The translations under genes and the position numbers were made by a program. The notes below the pieces were generated by a model that worked only from the letters and a program-made list of their open reading frames with translations, was not told the DNA's origin and made no database searches. Shown here piece by piece: positions 11,009 to 23,788 of a stretch of 23,788 nt of DNA. Position 1 is the stretch's first letter; each line of letters begins with the position of its first letter. The stretch is from sequence record OR670332; one strand, written 5' to 3'. The DNA comes from Shigella phage fPSFA.

Positions 11009-12148
11009 ATGGTCACTCGCAAAATAACAGATGAACAGTTGCAGCAAGAGCTAAATGCGGGCCTCGGCCCCACAGAAATAGCTAAAAAGTACAATATGTC
11101 ACGCCGTAATGTTCAGCTTCGTTCTGCGCGCCTGGCGAAGAAAGGCGTCGGACACGGGCGCGACGTAAGCCACCTTGTGCCAGATGGGTATAAAATTAAA
11201 GGTACGTCGTCGCTGGTAGATGAATTCGGTAACACGAAACTTCAATGGGTGAAAACAGATACTGATGCTGAACGTCAGGTAGAATTAATGCGCGCGGTCA
11301 TCGACGGAATGAAGTCTGATATTACGCCGGTTTCTGCGGTCCCTCCTCCTAAAAAGCGGCTAAACGAAAAGTTGCTAAATCTTTACACTGTTTCTGACTT
11401 CCATTTAGGTATGCTGGCCTGGGCGGATGAGAGCGGTGATGACTGGGACATGAAGATTGCGGAAGACCTTTTCTCTAAATGGTTTGACGCCGCGTTTCAG
11501 AAAGCACCCGACGCTGGTGTTGGTGTTATTAATCTCTTAGGGGACTTTGCCCACTTCGATAGCCTTGACGCCGTTACACCCGAGTCACGCCATGTGTTGG
11601 ACGCGGATACGCGTTACCAGAAGTTGGTACGCTACATGATTCGTATGGTCCGCCGTGTTGTGGATATGGCGCTGGTTAAGCATCACACAGTCAAACTTTT
11701 AATCGTTCAAGGCAACCACGACCCTGTCGGTTCAGTATGGCTGTCCGAAATGTTCTGCGCATTGTATGGCAACGAACCTCGCGTATTTGTGGACACCTCC
11801 CCTGACGTATATAAGATGGTTCAGCATGGGAAAACTACGCTATTCATGCACCACGGACACCGTGCGAGATTCGACGCCATAGAGTCAGTAATGATTTCTA
11901 AATTCCGTAAGGCTTTCGGTGAAAGCACATACAGTTACGCCCATGTAGGTCATCTACATCATCAGAAACTAGTAGAGAGCCGTAATATGGTAGTCGAACA
12001 GCATCGCACCCTGGCGGCAAAAGATGCTTACGCATCGCGAGGGGGTTGGATGTCGGGCCGTAGTGCTAACGTGATAACCTATAGTGCCGAATATGGGGAG
12101 GTGGCGCGCCTCACAATATCACCAGAAATGATAGGGGGTATAAATTGA
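11009..12148 (+). CDS. HTH domain fused to calcineurin-like metallophosphoesterase
   Basis: N-terminal HTH-like segment (LGPTEIAKKYNMSRRNVQLRSARL). Phosphoesterase motifs VSDFHLG, LGDFAHFD, VQGNHD, MHHGH, HVGHLHH. AGGAAA RBS upstream. Confidence 0.7.
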   Translation: MVTRKITDEQLQQELNAGLGPTEIAKKYNMSRRNVQLRSARLAKKGVGHGRDVSHLVPDGYKIKGTSSLVDEFGNTKLQWVKTDTDAERQVELMRAVIDGMKSDITPVSAVPPPKKRLNEKLLNLYTVSDFHLGMLAWADESGDDWDMKIAEDLFSKWFDAAFQKAPDAGVGVINLLGDFAHFDSLDAVTPESRHVLDADTRYQKLVRYMIRMVRRVVDMALVKHHTVKLLIVQGNHDPVGSVWLSEMFCALYGNEPRVFVDTSPDVYKMVQHGKTTLFMHHGHRARFDAIESVMISKFRKAFGESTYSYAHVGHLHHQKLVESRNMVVEQHRTLAAKDAYASRGGWMSGRSANVITYSAEYGEVARLTISPEMIGGIN

Positions 12149-12618
12149 CATGGAATGATGTTTACGAATACGAAAACGGGAATCTTTACGCTAAGGACAG
12201 CGTAAACCCTAAGTACCAGAAAGGGCGTAAAGTAGGGTACGTTGATCAACGCGGATATGTAAGAACTAAACTAGGGCCAAAAATGACATTCGCCCACAGA
12301 ATTATATGGGAAATGTTTAACGGAGCTATACCGGAAGGCAAGGAGATTGACCATATAAACGGTGTGAAAAGCGATAACCATATAAAGAATCTTCGGCTAT
12401 GCGACCGGCGCATAAACTGCAAAAACGCGGCAAAGCGCAGGGATAACTCGTCTGGTGTTACTGGGGTCAGTAAAACATATAACGGTAAATGGGTAGTTCA
12501 AATTCAATATAACGGAAATAGAATAGCCAAGCGTTTCGACAACAAAGAAGACGCCATAAGATATGCCGAATGTTTTTACAAAGAAAAGAAAGACTTTACT
12601 GAGAGGCACGGAAAATGA
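12145..12618 (+). CDS. HNH homing endonuclease with AP2 DNA-binding domain
   Basis: HNH motif IDHINGVKSDNHIKNLRLCDRRINCKN, followed by an AP2-like segment SSGVTGVSKTYNGKWVVQIQYNGNRIAKRFDNKEDAIRYAE. Apparent TTG start overlapping the previous stop. Confidence 0.8.
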   Translation: MTWNDVYEYENGNLYAKDSVNPKYQKGRKVGYVDQRGYVRTKLGPKMTFAHRIIWEMFNGAIPEGKEIDHINGVKSDNHIKNLRLCDRRINCKNAAKRRDNSSGVTGVSKTYNGKWVVQIQYNGNRIAKRFDNKEDAIRYAECFYKEKKDFTERHGK

Positions 12619-20379: not shown

Positions 20380-22239
20380 CTATTCCTCTTTCAGATAATC
20401 GGCAACACGCTTATCGAGTTCCGCCATCTCTTTAAGAGTTAACGGACGCCCGAATCCGTCTACCGATATTACACGAAATTCTTCCGGGGTTATCCCACTA
20501 TTACGAAAAATCTTACCCCGAACAGGGCCGAGGGCTTCGTCCTGAAACCACGCCGGTTGCTGCTTGAGGAATTCGTAGTAGGTCGTGTCGGCGCTTACCT
20601 GCTGACCTCCATCTGCACCCCTGGCCGCCCGTTTCGCGCCCTTATCAAGGAAGTCAAATTCGGAACTAATTACCGGAGCGGTTGTTGAGCGACAGTTATG
20701 TGCTATAATTCCATTTGCAAGATACCAGTTCTGTTCATTTTCGAGGTTATAAACATGCCCGCAAAAATCAGCTTCACTAAAGACCAAATCGACAACATCA
20801 TCAAGCTCTACACCGACGGCGTCGGACCAGTTGAAATCGGAAAGATTATCGGCGTTTCGTGTAGCCCAGTCATACGCGTTCTCAGAGAGAACGGCGTTAC
20901 TATTCGCGGAGGCAGCGACGCTATGTTTATCAGAATGGCTAAAGCTACCCCCGAGGAGCGCCTCGCGCTCTCCGCCGCAGCGCATGAAGCCGCCCGAGGG
21001 AGAAAGGCCGACCATGCCGAACTGCTTCGCAGGGCCAAAGCCAGGGAGGGGGGCATCAACGCTGGCAGCCACTGGGAGTTCCTTGTCAACGATTTGCTTA
21101 TTCAGTCTGGACTTGACTTTATCCCAGGAAAGGCTGTCGACAAGTACAATCTCGACTTCGCCGTCGGTTCCGTCGCCGTGGAAGTCTTCGGGGGAGGTTG
21201 GGCTTGTACTGACCGCCGCCGGATTGGCCGCTACATTAGCCGCACTAAACAAATCGGAGAACTTGGCTACAACGTTGTGTTCCTTATGCTTGAGAGAGAG
21301 CGTAGCGTCCTTAGCGCACACGAGCTTGTCACCTACATTGAGAAGGCCAGAAGCAACCCAACCACTGGTAGTCAATACTTGGTGATTTGGGGTGATAGAC
21401 AAGGTGCGACCGGACTTTGTAGAGACATAGACTATAGTGCCTTTGTACGCCCTTTTAAAAATGTTAGAAACAGGGCTACCGGTAGATACTACAGTGTCCC
21501 CAAGTAAACAATTAGGATGGGCCGGCGGCAGCGGCCCTTTTCCTATTTCGTACTGCATAGAATCGCGCGACCGGCAAACAGCCGAAGTACGGGAATCAAG
21601 GGTAGATACCCACTCATATTTCGTGATGATATCGTCGTTCTGAGCGTAAACCTGTTGCCGTGCTTCGTTGGATACGTGCGCCAGCGCTGTCCGGATAACG
21701 GTTGCAGCGTTACGCTCGGAGATATCGGCCAGACCACCGGGCCCAACAACGTTCTTAACTATCTGCCGCGTGGTCATACCCTGTACGAACCCAGACTTAA
21801 CCCCCATCACCAGGCGATTCACCTCGGTTTGCCGCCAGCCATTCATTAGCGAAACAAAATCAACCGGTTTTTCGCTTAGTTCAAGTGGCGCGAAAGTCGC
21901 AGCGGCCCACACCTGCTCCGCAGCCGGTGTTACAAAGTTAGCATTAACGTTGGTCGACAATGTTTTTACATTCCAGTTAACCTCATAGTCGGAAAGCTCA
22001 CGGGCGTCGGCCAGTAGCTTCTCATACCACCCGGACGTAATTCCGTTCAGTGCTTGCTCAAGTTCCCGCAGCATGATGGTGAGTCTCGCTGCCGTTCTGC
22101 TGTCATCGCCAAACAGCAGCACCTGTCGCTTAACCTCATCACGCATTTGCGAGATAAATGGTGCCAGGTCTTTTACTTCGCTACTGGCGTTACGTTGCAG
22201 CAATATCTGGTGGCTGATAATCGATTCTAAAAGACTCAT
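20380..22239 (-). CDS. head morphogenesis protein (SPP1 gp7 / Mu F-like), intein-containing precursor
   Basis: N-extein ends ...TLDSRTSAVCRSRDSMQYEIGKGPLPPAHPN and the C-extein begins CRSTT, which restores the family's HPNC-type motif after excision of 272 aa. AGGAGG RBS upstream. Confidence 0.75.
   Translation of the reverse strand: MSLLESIISHQILLQRNASSEVKDLAPFISQMRDEVKRQVLLFGDDSRTAARLTIMLRELEQALNGITSGWYEKLLADARELSDYEVNWNVKTLSTNVNANFVTPAAEQVWAAATFAPLELSEKPVDFVSLMNGWRQTEVNRLVMGVKSGFVQGMTTRQIVKNVVGPGGLADISERNAATVIRTALAHVSNEARQQVYAQNDDIITKYEWVSTLDSRTSAVCRSRDSMQYEIGKGPLPPAHPNCLLGDTVVSTGSPVSNIFKRAYKGTIVYVSTKSGRTLSITPNHQVLTTSGWVASGLLNVGDKLVCAKDATLSLKHKEHNVVAKFSDLFSAANVAANPAAVSTSPTSPEDFHGDGTDGEVEIVLVDSLSWDKVKSRLNKQIVDKELPVAASVDAPLPGFGPAKQFGMVGLSPSGGFMRCGGEREALLGGSFSHSDKHSVAASANSNAVLSENAYDWATRNADNLSDFNWSDAVGVELDDVVDLVFSEADFCGHVYNLENEQNWYLANGIIAHNCRSTTAPVISSEFDFLDKGAKRAARGADGGQQVSADTTYYEFLKQQPAWFQDEALGPVRGKIFRNSGITPEEFRVISVDGFGRPLTLKEMAELDKRVADYLKEE
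20682..20709 (+). promoter_or_regulatory. putative extended -10 promoter for the antisense intein-nested gene
   Basis: TGcTATAAT at 20701-20709, with TTGTTG at 20682-20687 and a 16-nt spacer. Confidence 0.45.
20695..21510 (-). mobile_element. intein (Hint domain) inserted in the head morphogenesis protein
   Basis: Block A CLLGDTVV at the N-terminus, block B SITPNHQVLT, and C-terminal blocks VYNLENEQNWYLANGIIAHN followed by a +1 Cys. In frame with the host gene. Confidence 0.75.
20755..21507 (+). CDS. HTH + DUF559/Vsr-like (PD-(D/E)xK fold) endonuclease-like protein, encoded antisense within the intein
   Basis: ATG at 20755 with GAGG 8 nt upstream. N-terminal HTH (DQIDNIIKLYTDGVGPVEIGKIIGVSCSPVIRVLRENGV). 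DUF559-like core YNLDFAVGSVAVEVFGGGW...TDRRRIGRY...LGYNVVFL. Translation verified by hand. Confidence 0.65.
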   Translation: MPAKISFTKDQIDNIIKLYTDGVGPVEIGKIIGVSCSPVIRVLRENGVTIRGGSDAMFIRMAKATPEERLALSAAAHEAARGRKADHAELLRRAKAREGGINAGSHWEFLVNDLLIQSGLDFIPGKAVDKYNLDFAVGSVAVEVFGGGWACTDRRRIGRYISRTKQIGELGYNVVFLMLERERSVLSAHELVTYIEKARSNPTTGSQYLVIWGDRQGATGLCRDIDYSAFVRPFKNVRNRATGRYYSVPK

Positions 22240-22341: not shown

Positions 22342-22710
22342 ATGGGTATGTATACGAAGTTATGGTTTGATGCTGACTTAAAACATAACGTAGATGAAAT
22401 TAACCTGCGCGCATTGGAGTACCTATTTGTCGGTGGTGACGTCCCTGATGTATTACCGTGCCACCCATTTTTCACACTAGAAAGATGGTCGTACATGTTT
22501 TATTCCCCTGCGTACTCGGGAGATGCCGTCACGGTTAAACTTGGCGATTACTACAACCATGTATCGGCGCATATAGAGGTTAAAAATTACTGCGGCGAGA
22601 TAGAGAGTTTCCTTGATTGGGTACGACCACTCTTGGACGTGGAGAAGGGGACTTGCATAGGGTGGAAATGGTATGAAGGAGACGATAACCCAATCCTGAT
22701 ATACGCGTAA
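22342..22710 (+). CDS. hypothetical protein (122 aa, aromatic-rich), moron between portal and head morphogenesis genes
   Basis: ORF occupies a gap with no minus-strand gene. AGGAGA RBS 7 nt upstream and a terminator directly downstream. Confidence 0.55.
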   Translation: MGMYTKLWFDADLKHNVDEINLRALEYLFVGGDVPDVLPCHPFFTLERWSYMFYSPAYSGDAVTVKLGDYYNHVSAHIEVKNYCGEIESFLDWVRPLLDVEKGTCIGWKWYEGDDNPILIYA

Positions 22711-22745: not shown

Positions 22746-23788
22746 TTACTGTTCAGGTTGTTGCGCCGATTGAGGGATTTCCCCCTGAACTTCAGTAGCG
22801 ACCGGTAATGGCTGGTCCGCTACCGCGTCCTTAATATCGGCATCTGTCCAGTCGGTTACGCCAGCTTTACGCAACGCGGCATAGTAGGCCGTAACGGGCA
22901 GAAATCCTGCATTAATATCCGCCATCCAGGCGGCCCTGTCTTGTGCGGTCATAGGTTCCAGGAAGAAGTCCATATTAAGGCGGAATTCTACCTCGGTATC
23001 TTCCGGTTTGCCCAACATTACAGCCACCCAACGTAAGGCGTCCGTATAGGCCTGGCTTACGTTACGCGCAATTGTCGCCATGACGGACGTATCGGCACCG
23101 CGCTGTATTCGGGCGGATTGTGCGGTGATTTGCTGAGTGGGGGTGATAAGCTGCGCACCAATCTGGATAGCTTGCTGTTCTTTGTCCAGCATATTCTGGC
23201 GGGCAAGGTTGTTCTCGCCTGCCTGGATAAGCTGAGCGCTACCGCCATATCCCAGGTTATGCCCACACCGACTACCAAATTTGATACCGTTAGGGTTCGC
23301 TTCCTTGAATGATTGAGGTGTTAAGTTCTCGCCTGGGTAGATAAACAGGGTCGGCTGCCCAACAACGAAGCTGGATTCTTCGTTGTCCGCGCTGTTCCTG
23401 TAGTGCCCGATGTTAAGTTCCGCGAGTGGTAGTAGCGGAGCGTCGTCAATGGTGGCGTCGTTATTGGTCGCCCCAATAAAGGTAAACGGAATTACCCCTC
23501 GTAATGATTCTCCTAAGTCCGGGTAAATCTCCACAACGTCTTCCTGCGCACCACCTTCGGCATCGAAACGAAAAAGACGTTGACGGTAGTTGCCGTCGCT
23601 ATCGATGTCCAGAACGCGATACTGTTCGCCGTATTTAGTTTCGAACTCGTTTCCCGGTTCGTTGTACTCCCATGTCTCGCGCAGCACAACCATAGTTACC
23701 CGGTTTACAGAACCTACGCGCGTGAGTCGCCAGTTAACGATATTCTCGGTAGTGTAGAAAGCGATTGTAGGGTTAAGCAAACCTGCGT
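22746..23788 (-). CDS. portal protein, C-terminal part (5' end outside window)
   Basis: Frame is open to the window edge. The gene sits immediately upstream of the head morphogenesis gene, as in SPP1-type head modules, and has an acidic, Gln-rich C-terminal tail. Call is by position. Confidence 0.5.
   Translation of the reverse strand, partial: AGLLNPTIAFYTTENIVNWRLTRVGSVNRVTMVVLRETWEYNEPGNEFETKYGEQYRVLDIDSDGNYRQRLFRFDAEGGAQEDVVEIYPDLGESLRGVIPFTFIGATNNDATIDDAPLLPLAELNIGHYRNSADNEESSFVVGQPTLFIYPGENLTPQSFKEANPNGIKFGSRCGHNLGYGGSAQLIQAGENNLARQNMLDKEQQAIQIGAQLITPTQQITAQSARIQRGADTSVMATIARNVSQAYTDALRWVAVMLGKPEDTEVEFRLNMDFFLEPMTAQDRAAWMADINAGFLPVTAYYAALRKAGVTDWTDADIKDAVADQPLPVATEVQGEIPQSAQQPEQ

Follow-up and report, generated by a model that had tools for sequence, protein, structure and literature searches.

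Evidence for an antisense Vsr-like homing endonuclease gene inside the head-gene intein of Shigella phage fPSFA

Results and discussion

The head morphogenesis gene of Shigella phage fPSFA (sequence record OR670332; the stretch of 23,788 nucleotides (nt) that was analysed is called the window below) is interrupted in frame by an 816-bp element at 20695-21510. This element is very probably a mobile composite of an intein and an antisense Vsr-like homing endonuclease gene, its DNA being read on both strands. On the minus strand one continuous precursor of 619 amino acids (aa) would be made, whose Hint splicing domain, composed of insert residues ~1-105 and ~233-272, is predicted from its motifs to excise 272 residues and to join ...PPAHPN to CRSTT..., giving a 347-aa head protein. 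On the plus strand a nested, codon-aligned gene at 20755-21507 would encode a 250-aa protein with a helix-turn-helix (HTH) region and a Vsr-like nuclease domain, and this gene would be transcribed from a -10 element in intein block G and translated from 20755. Start codon, stop codon, ribosome-binding site and -10-like hexamer are all drawn from intein codons, so that the whole gene would travel inside the intein. The 250-aa protein most likely cuts intein-free head-gene alleles of co-infecting phages at or near the HPN/C codons, and repair would then copy the intein with short flanks, the process of homing to which the population patterns described below point. The centre of the intein frame would be an unstructured linker of ~127 residues with no function of its own, kept free of stops because the essential head protein must still be made.

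The intein and its intein-free relatives

Residues 244-515 of the 619-aa protein run from CLLGDTVV through SITPNHQV to NWYLANGIIAHN and are followed by CRSTT. The Pfam family PF14890 (Intein_splicing) is matched at 39.3 bits against a cut-off of 35.8, and the NCBIfam models TIGR01445 (intein_Nterm) and TIGR01443 (intein_Cterm) score 25.1 and 22.1 against cut-offs of 24.5 and 15.6. A profile built from the intein together with related sequences matches the solved inteins KlbA, RecA, DnaB and RadA. Both nucleophiles are present, Cys1 in CLLGDT and Cys+1 in CRSTT; the residues of block B, block F and the C-terminal ...G-I-I-A-H271-N272 are invariant in the intein alignment, and HN/C is found at the C-terminal junction in 31 of 34 non-duplicate loci from IMG/VR. 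The host protein is recognised by PF04233 (Phage_Mu_F, 34.8 against 29.6) and by the PHROGs head morphogenesis family phrog_241 (E=8e-144), while TIGR01641 reaches 36.8, slightly under its cut-off of 39.65, because the intein interrupts the domain. Records of related phages label this gene as a head morphogenesis or minor capsid protein, and the 347 phage records that match the head gene query come nearly all from Salmonella phages.

Deleting the 272-codon insert leaves a 347-aa protein. Phages pink and Ent1 have intein-free proteins of 347 aa with an unbroken PPAHPNCRS, 95-97% identical to the exteins of the window; in Ent1 the insertion point reads ...CCGCCCGCGCACCCTAAC joined directly to TGTCGGTCGACCAC.... 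The uninterrupted junction PPAHPN/CRS occurs in 188 phage records (with 80% or more of a spliced 400-nt query covered) and the insert (at least 80% of its length) in 69. The original prediction, made by a model from the letters of the window, had placed Hint blocks in frame with the head gene at HPN/C, where they would interrupt a motif conserved in Mu F/gp7 proteins, and had named alignment with intein-free homologues as a check. All of this stands: the insert is 20695-21510, 272 residues, and no chance resemblance, its position inside the motif is confirmed by PF04233, PF14890 and the reading of the junction, and the 347-aa alleles of pink and Ent1 together with the 188 records supply the alignment. 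The existence of close homologues that lack it makes the 272-aa segment an insert and not a native domain of the family. It is a genuine class-1-type intein in a Mu F/SPP1 gp7-like gene, with splicing itself predicted; an intein in frame and close homologues without the insert imply that the head protein would have to rely on protein splicing, as had been proposed.

A Vsr-like nuclease on the opposite strand

The description of the insert as a mini-intein is the part of the original prediction that fails. The opposite strand of the same 816 bases encodes the 250-aa HTH and Vsr-like nuclease protein, and over the central 127 codons selection on the coding sequence acts in the plus-strand open reading frame (ORF) and not in the intein frame; an endonuclease-less mini-intein is the wrong label. 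The plus-strand ORF as listed spans 20698-21507. In the SE1 allele a stop codon upstream confines it to the ATG equivalent to window position 20755, and the gene is therefore 20755-21507, of 250 codons. It lies wholly inside the intein and is codon-aligned with the intein frame, position 2 facing position 2. Its ATG is the complement of CAT, the codon of His252 in intein block F (GHVYNLE), and its TAA is the complement of TTA, the codon of intein Leu2.

A profile of the endonuclease family matches I-Bth0305I (PDB 3R3P, "mobile intron protein") at E=2e-5, and the AlphaFold (AF2) model of the plus-strand protein, built with 17 sequences, has a mean predicted local distance difference test score (pLDDT) of 86.6 over its full length. 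The protein combines a Vsr-like fold with an N-terminal DNA-binding region of HTH/NUMOD type. Among its relatives six match MTES_1575 and one matches DUF559 in Pfam, and PHROGs gives weak "DNA binding protein" matches to the ORF itself. E108, D134 and E143 are invariant in the endonuclease alignments, align with E170, D196 and E206 of I-Bth0305I, and supply the Glu (Vsr E25), the Asp (Vsr D51) and the family-specific acidic residue (position of Vsr F62) of the active site. In the hidden Markov model (HMM) alignment D222 of I-Bth0305I, the second metal-binding Asp (Vsr D97), falls opposite Tyr160, and a conserved Asp153 lies 7 residues earlier. The two proteins meet at block B, where T40, N42 and H43 are invariant in the intein alignment and W212 and G213, read from the other strand, are invariant in the endonuclease alignment.

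The centre of the intein frame was considered as a possible in-frame endonuclease domain and rejected, since it gives no family, PDB or fold match, its ratio of non-synonymous to synonymous substitution rates (dN/dS) exceeds 1 and its pLDDT is 22-41. The AlphaFold model of the intein frame (9 sequences) has low confidence overall (pLDDT 41.4), with the values of 22-41 extending over residues 68-223, and was used only for contrast with the plus-frame model and for its Foldseek matches, which are solely to inteins and Hint domains and run through the terminal parts. The centre has a single conserved motif in the intein frame, (S/A)PEDFHGDG, and its codons are complementary to those of the nuclease strand VAVEVFGGGW. 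The intein-frame centre is stop-free filler and not a domain.

Selection on the two strands

Fifteen aligned alleles (12 distinct enterobacterial, one from Pantoea and two from Vibrio), down to 68% nucleotide identity, have both frames open without exception, and in the Vibrio copies an insertion of 53 codons leaves both frames open. In IMG/VR 239 stretches encode a relative; among the best 80 of these, with endonucleases 30-96% identical, the nuclease frame and the codon-aligned frame antisense to it are both open over the whole nuclease match in 79, the latter in open frames of 288-954 aa, some of which are ended by contig ends. The sole exception (L033, IMGVR_UViG_3300028214_000030) has both frames broken into pieces, through decay of the copy or else through a frameshift in the assembly. 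From the amino acid sequences and the phage's own codon usage we computed the chance that the endonuclease ORF would lack every TTA, CTA and TCA codon, and so leave the intein frame open, as P=3.7e-4, and the chance that intein codons 3-272 would lack them, and so leave the antisense frame open, as P=6e-6.

Selection was measured as pairwise Nei-Gojobori dN/dS, by segment and in both frames. Over intein codons 1-105, the N-terminal Hint domain, dN/dS is ~0.4-0.6 in the plus frame and ~0.3-0.5 in the intein frame. Over the centre, codons 106-232, it is 0.11-0.15 in the plus frame (dS 0.7-1.5) and 1.1-1.9 in the intein frame. Over codons 233-272, which hold blocks F and G, the intein frame gives 0.02-0.10; the plus-frame values of 0.4 to >2 are not meaningful there, with little or no synonymous change. 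The central pattern is reproduced independently by the Vibrio pair, which shows 16 synonymous and 7 non-synonymous differences when the centre is read in the plus frame, and 4 synonymous and 19 non-synonymous when it is read in the intein frame. In the centre of the intein only the plus-strand ORF is under purifying selection, and this rules out for the centre that conservation of the ORF is a mere shadow of constraint on the intein. Over the last ~100 codons of the ORF, where both frames have dN/dS of ~0.3-0.5, its conservation may be such a shadow; the only argument for function in this part is the open frame, with P=7e-3 in the window, repeated across lineages.

A third open frame inside the intein, 20831-21385 (+), has a low-complexity translation of 184 aa. 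A shorter ORF in the same frame is listed as "hypothetical protein" in PK2 and vB_StyS-sam. Diverged alleles keep 130-155 aa open in this frame, which probably arises as a side effect of the double coding.

Putative expression signals in the intein codons

The Shine-Dalgarno-like region, GAGGTTATAAACATG, is invariant in 13 of the 15 alleles, the Vibrio phages among them, and the TATAAT of block G is invariant in all 15. Codon and junction statistics were taken from 50 non-duplicate IMG/VR loci. The block-F His is encoded by CAT, giving the nuclease its start ATG, in 46 of the 50, compared with a share of 49% for CAT in the rest of these ORFs. At residue -4 of block G, which is Ile, Leu or Val, an NTA codon is used in 43, compared with 15.5% elsewhere, and an NTA codon at this position yields TAnnAT ~46-51 nt upstream of the nuclease start. 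One diverged locus (L018) has found another solution in the same place, TTGTCA-17-TATAAT followed by GGAGG. In 39 of the 50 the nuclease stop is complementary to the second codon of the intein. The N-terminal junction is nearly always PPxHx(N)/CLxGD(T/A/S). The codon bias in blocks F and G appears to make sense only as signals for the opposite strand, and there is good indirect evidence for a predicted host-type promoter and ribosome-binding site written into the C-terminal blocks of the intein.

A terminator-like hairpin at 21519-21537 (+) was considered as a further part of the element and rejected, as it is not conserved in other alleles and is disrupted in PK2. It is GC-rich with a T-run, lies 12 nt past the endonuclease stop within the N-extein codons for GPLPPAHP, and is probably fortuitous.

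A stronger proposal is that the antisense layout is an integrated design built from the invariant codons of the intein; taken with all of its linked parts, we regard this as possible and on the doubtful side. The start may have been taken from the block-F His, the stop from Leu2 and the Shine-Dalgarno sequence from the Asn-Leu codons. The -10 hexamer may likewise come from the block-G Ile-Ile/Leu/Val codons, with ~100 codons doubly constrained, such that neither partner could be lost or moved alone. The nuclease may be expressed early from the host-type promoter and shut off late, when the head operon is transcribed convergently, and in the enterobacterial/Vibrio clade it may cut without the Vsr-type histidine.

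Signs of mobility of the element

In comparison with E. coli phage GZMU_E2010 the intein of the window is 95.0% identical, whereas the 300-nt flanks are 80.7% and 73.3% identical. Mismatches per 30 nt fall from 5-8 to 0-4 exactly at 20695 and are back to 10-16 within ~25 nt of 21510. PK2 and MET_P1 are identical over the intein and ~30 and ~85 nt of flank, and ~8% diverged beyond. Intein-bearing and intein-free alleles are interleaved, and the intein occurs sporadically among very close extein alleles: the exteins of the window have 97% amino acid identity to those of intein-free Ent1, as against 68% to those of intein-bearing SE1. Near the junction, the intein-bearing alleles of Jerseyvirus have in common silent differences from the intein-free ones, AAT versus AAC at -1 and CGC versus CGG at +2, which would be the outcome expected of co-conversion or target immunity. 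Taken together, the patterns of identity look like the footprints expected of endonuclease-driven homing.

The inteins of SGP009 and L223 are recombinants of two types with a breakpoint near 21205-21235. The part equivalent to 21235-21505, which holds the N-terminal Hint region and the C-terminus of the nuclease, is like the SaI_NFG_5577 type, and the rest is like the window type.

Alternative explanations

Several observations weigh against the composite of intein and antisense endonuclease. A direct Pfam scan of the plus-strand ORF of the window finds no nuclease family, only HTH_7 at E=0.11, and an NCBIfam scan of it finds nothing; the nuclease is visible only through the family profile and the structure model. 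A sigma-70 consensus scan finds no plus-strand promoter before the ORF, a site of the kind proposed being missed by such a scan because it has no -35 element, and the window has two copies of TGNTATAAT where 0.67 would be expected, by itself no significant excess. The case for a promoter therefore rests on codon choice across loci, and there the binomial probabilities of 1e-10 (CAT) and 5e-28 (NTA) reflect a large bias but overstate its significance, because the loci are related and were treated as independent. Dual coding slows divergence and may inflate the contrast between intein and flanks, but it cannot explain identities of 100% or 95% with sharp edges. The last point concerns the active site. 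His69 of Vsr and His213 of I-Bth0305I act as the general base, and the H213A change was used for inactivating I-Bth0305I (PMC3239194). At this position the protein of the window has Ala150 (GGGW-A) and those of the Vibrio phages have Ser (Trp-Ser), whereas W-H is kept in 114 of the 149 best family representatives, and also in P0014-P0017. With Ala150 for His, the protein of the window has the EDxHD fold and most of the active site, minus one defining feature.

The missing histidine leads directly to an alternative in which the endonuclease is domesticated or inactive, having lost cleavage with the change from His to Ala and being kept for DNA binding or regulation of late genes, while the intein spreads solely by vertical descent and ordinary phage recombination. 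We consider this improbable, though it is the most serious of the alternatives. The replacement is found throughout the enterobacterial/Vibrio clade, the HTH region is strongly conserved, and the genomes of this phage group are mosaic, so recombination is frequent (PMC8425127). Against this, the boundaries of high identity coincide with the ends of the intein in unrelated backgrounds, identical inteins sit in genes 8% diverged, and among alleles with very similar exteins the intein is present only sporadically; moreover, the three acidic residues are invariant and the nuclease core is under strong purifying selection. This selection, together with recent mobility in the clade, argues that the 250-aa protein is active as a nuclease, and it may act through another base or by nicking.

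Much less credible is a plain mini-intein, an endonuclease-less intein with a long linker in which the plus-strand ORF would be a chance antisense frame with no product. An antisense frame is open most often when it is codon-aligned (among the 19 other genes of the window the longest such stretch reaches 131 aa), most database records annotate the head gene alone, and the direct Pfam scan gives nothing significant. A chance frame would nevertheless have to account for the central dN/dS, far below 1 in the plus frame and above 1 in the intein frame, and for plus-strand proteins that are 48% identical between Salmonella and Vibrio phages when the intein-frame centre is unalignable. It would also have to account for a confident Vsr-like model, more than 1,200 clusters of relatives at 50% identity and E<=1e-30, and an ORF that is open in 79 of 80 diverged loci. 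Least probable of all, to the point of being nearly negligible, is a fractured gene with a split intein, in which two polypeptides would trans-splice and a free-standing endonuclease gene would lie between the halves. The nuclease does belong to the Vsr-like family found between split-intein halves by Dassa et al. (PMC2677866), but the minus frame runs through the insert without a stop in all 15 alleles and in 79 of the 80 metagenomic loci, neither a restart codon nor a ribosome-binding site that could serve a C-terminal half was seen, and the endonuclease is on the opposite strand and not between same-strand halves.

Relation to known systems

Inteins with anti-sense VSR-like endonucleases have been described in actinobacteriophages, with minor capsid proteins among the hosts and matches to 1CW0 and 3R3P (bioRxiv 10.1101/2025.01.02.630785). 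The composite in the window resembles these inteins of Gosselin, Arsenault & Gogarten 2025, compared by description, in its contiguous intein, opposite-strand endonuclease and minor capsid (Mu F/gp7-like) host. It differs in being hosted by phages of Salmonella, E. coli, Pantoea and Vibrio, in the overlap of its ORF with intein residues 2-105 and 233-252, where constraint acts on both frames (again by description), and in the replacement of the catalytic His in its clade. In the citing passages of that preprint, anti-sense LAGLIDADG endonuclease inteins are given as known earlier, in Synechocystis DnaX and others (Gorbalenya 1998, Gogarten 2002); as portrayed there, these likewise have an opposite-strand endonuclease, but of another nuclease family and in cellular, not phage, hosts.

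The nuclease itself is most like I-Bth0305I and the "EDxHD" family (Taylor et al. 2011, PMC3239194), with which it shares an N-terminal HTH/NUMOD-like region, a C-terminal Vsr-like nuclease, the Glu, the Asp and the extra acidic residue, and a location inside a self-splicing element of a phage gene. I-Bth0305I, however, lies in a group I intron on the sense strand, whereas the nuclease in the window lies antisense in an intein; His213 is essential in the former and is Ala150 in the latter, which also has an extra conserved, beta-rich C-terminal extension of ~50-100 aa. In the fractured genes of Dassa et al. 2009, split inteins have a free-standing Vsr-like or GIY-YIG endonuclease gene between their halves (PMC2677866). 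Shared with the window are phage genes, the same endonuclease superfamily in the endonuclease-insertion region of the intein, and expression signals of its own; there the gene is in two ORFs with a split intein, whereas here the endonuclease is antisense and the frame of intein and host is continuous.

The intein has been noticed before. The announcement of phage Snoke mentions a "large intein" in the capsid morphogenesis gene and names LSPA1 as carrying a near-identical one (PMC6776784), and the UPWr_S phages are described as having an "intein-containing capsid morphogenesis protein" (PMC8425127). The LSPA1 intein is 96.4% identical to that of the window, and the Guernseyvirinae intein of Snoke and LSPA1 is, judged by its sequence, the same intein. 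The antisense ORF is mentioned in neither of these two papers, and our literature searches returned no earlier description of it in Jersey-like phages. The intein in Guernseyvirinae and the antisense Vsr-like architecture, the latter from actinophages in 2025, are thus already known. What is added is the enterobacterial, Pantoea and Vibrio host range, a quantified strand-switching of constraint, an overlap that reaches deep into the N-terminal splicing domain, the fixed rules for start and stop, the expression signals built from codons, the size of the family and the missing histidine.

The element is an experimentally tractable case of a rare, already reported architecture. About 70 Guernseyvirinae genomes carry the conserved 250-aa gene, which is unannotated in most of the records inspected. 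Anti-sense Vsr-like inteins are hereby brought into easily grown Salmonella and E. coli phages with natural intein-plus and intein-minus relatives, and homing, splicing and antisense expression are therefore testable by simple crosses. Through TTA, CTA or TCA codons the nuclease can be given a stop that leaves the intein protein unaltered. The constrained strand switches along one 816-bp element, making it an unusually clean natural example of antisense double coding, and one that bears on the model of intein evolution in which splicing came first and the endonuclease invades later.

The wider family

Word-indexed protein searches returned only 17 and 16 matches, which made the family look misleadingly rare; the 17 came exclusively from contigs 1-2.7 kb long. 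An exhaustive profile search returned 1,202 clusters (50% identity) at E<=1e-30 and 4,507 at E<=1e-10. The nuclease family is large, and in the 80 viral loci sampled it is nearly always embedded in an intein. On the contigs of four distant relatives (L018, L019, L022 and L024) the antisense frame is open and the intein is at an H-x-x/C site, with a flanking protein that is recognisably Mu F-like in L018, L019 and L024. L019 is of high GC content, lies near a gene for head decoration protein D (PF02924), and has a homologous endonuclease, P0017, at the same HPxC site. On another contig (L023, 1950-3790) the pair of intein and antisense nuclease is inside a gene for RtcB (RNA ligase), a location which suggests that the composite element has switched host genes. 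A phage integrase gene lies ~0.3 kb downstream on this contig, and the N-terminal part of RtcB is called in a different frame.

An additional HTH-like repeat of 53 residues is present in the nucleases of Vibrio phages 1.197.A and 1.113.A, so that their inteins are 325 aa long. The records of these two phages flag only an "intein C-terminal splicing region".

Feature coordinates and neighbouring genes

Table 1. Positions in the window of the host gene, the intein and the antisense gene, with the basis for each.
Feature	Position	Strand	Basis
Precursor gene, Mu F / SPP1 gp7-like head morphogenesis (minor capsid) protein including the intein, 619 aa	20380-22239	-	ORF; PF04233 and PF14890 above gathering cut-offs
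N-extein, 243 aa, ending ...GPLPPAHPN	21511-22239	-	End-to-end alignment with intein-free alleles
C-extein, 104 aa and stop codon, starting CRSTTAPV	20380-20694	-	Alignment with intein-free alleles
Intein, 272 codons, Cys1 ... His271-Asn272, then Cys+1	20695-21510	-	Family profiles; intein-free alleles
Block B, T40-P-N-H43 (TxxH); other strand is V-I-W-G of the endonuclease	21382-21393	-	Sequence; alignments
Central 127 codons (106-232), open unconstrained filler	20815-21195	-	dN/dS; pLDDT
Blocks F and G, G-H-V-Y-N-L-E ... N-G-I-I-A-H-N; antisense is promoter-like hexamer, Shine-Dalgarno and start codon	20695-20760	-	dN/dS; per-codon table
Antisense ORF, 250 aa and stop, N-terminal HTH and Vsr-like (EDxHD-related) nuclease, putative homing endonuclease	20755-21507	+	ORF list; profile; model
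Nuclease core strand: Asp134 (21154-56), Glu143 (21181-83), Trp149-Ala150 (21199-21204)	21154-21204	+	HMM alignment to 3r3p
GAGG, Shine-Dalgarno-like, 8 nt upstream of ATG, complement of block-F Asn-Leu codons	20743-20746	+	Read from sequence
TGcTATAAT, extended -10-like element, complement of block-G Ile268-Ile269-Ala270	20701-20709	+	Sequence; alleles

The gene neighbourhood of the window (portal, scaffold, major head, tail and tailspike by PHROGs) includes a portal fragment at 22746-23780 in the same head module as the 619-aa gene, with the scaffold and major head genes nearby, and the phage is a Jerseyvirus-like (Guernseyvirinae) siphophage. A free-standing HNH endonuclease gene (phrog_99, E=7e-49) at 12145-12618 (+), directly after a DNA-repair exonuclease gene at 11009-12148, gives this phage another nuclease of mobile type. 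Between the portal and head morphogenesis genes, and running against the head operon, there is a 122-aa ORF of unknown function (phrog_4334) at 22342-22710 (+); in MET_P1_001_43 this slot holds two other ORFs, so the slot is variable.

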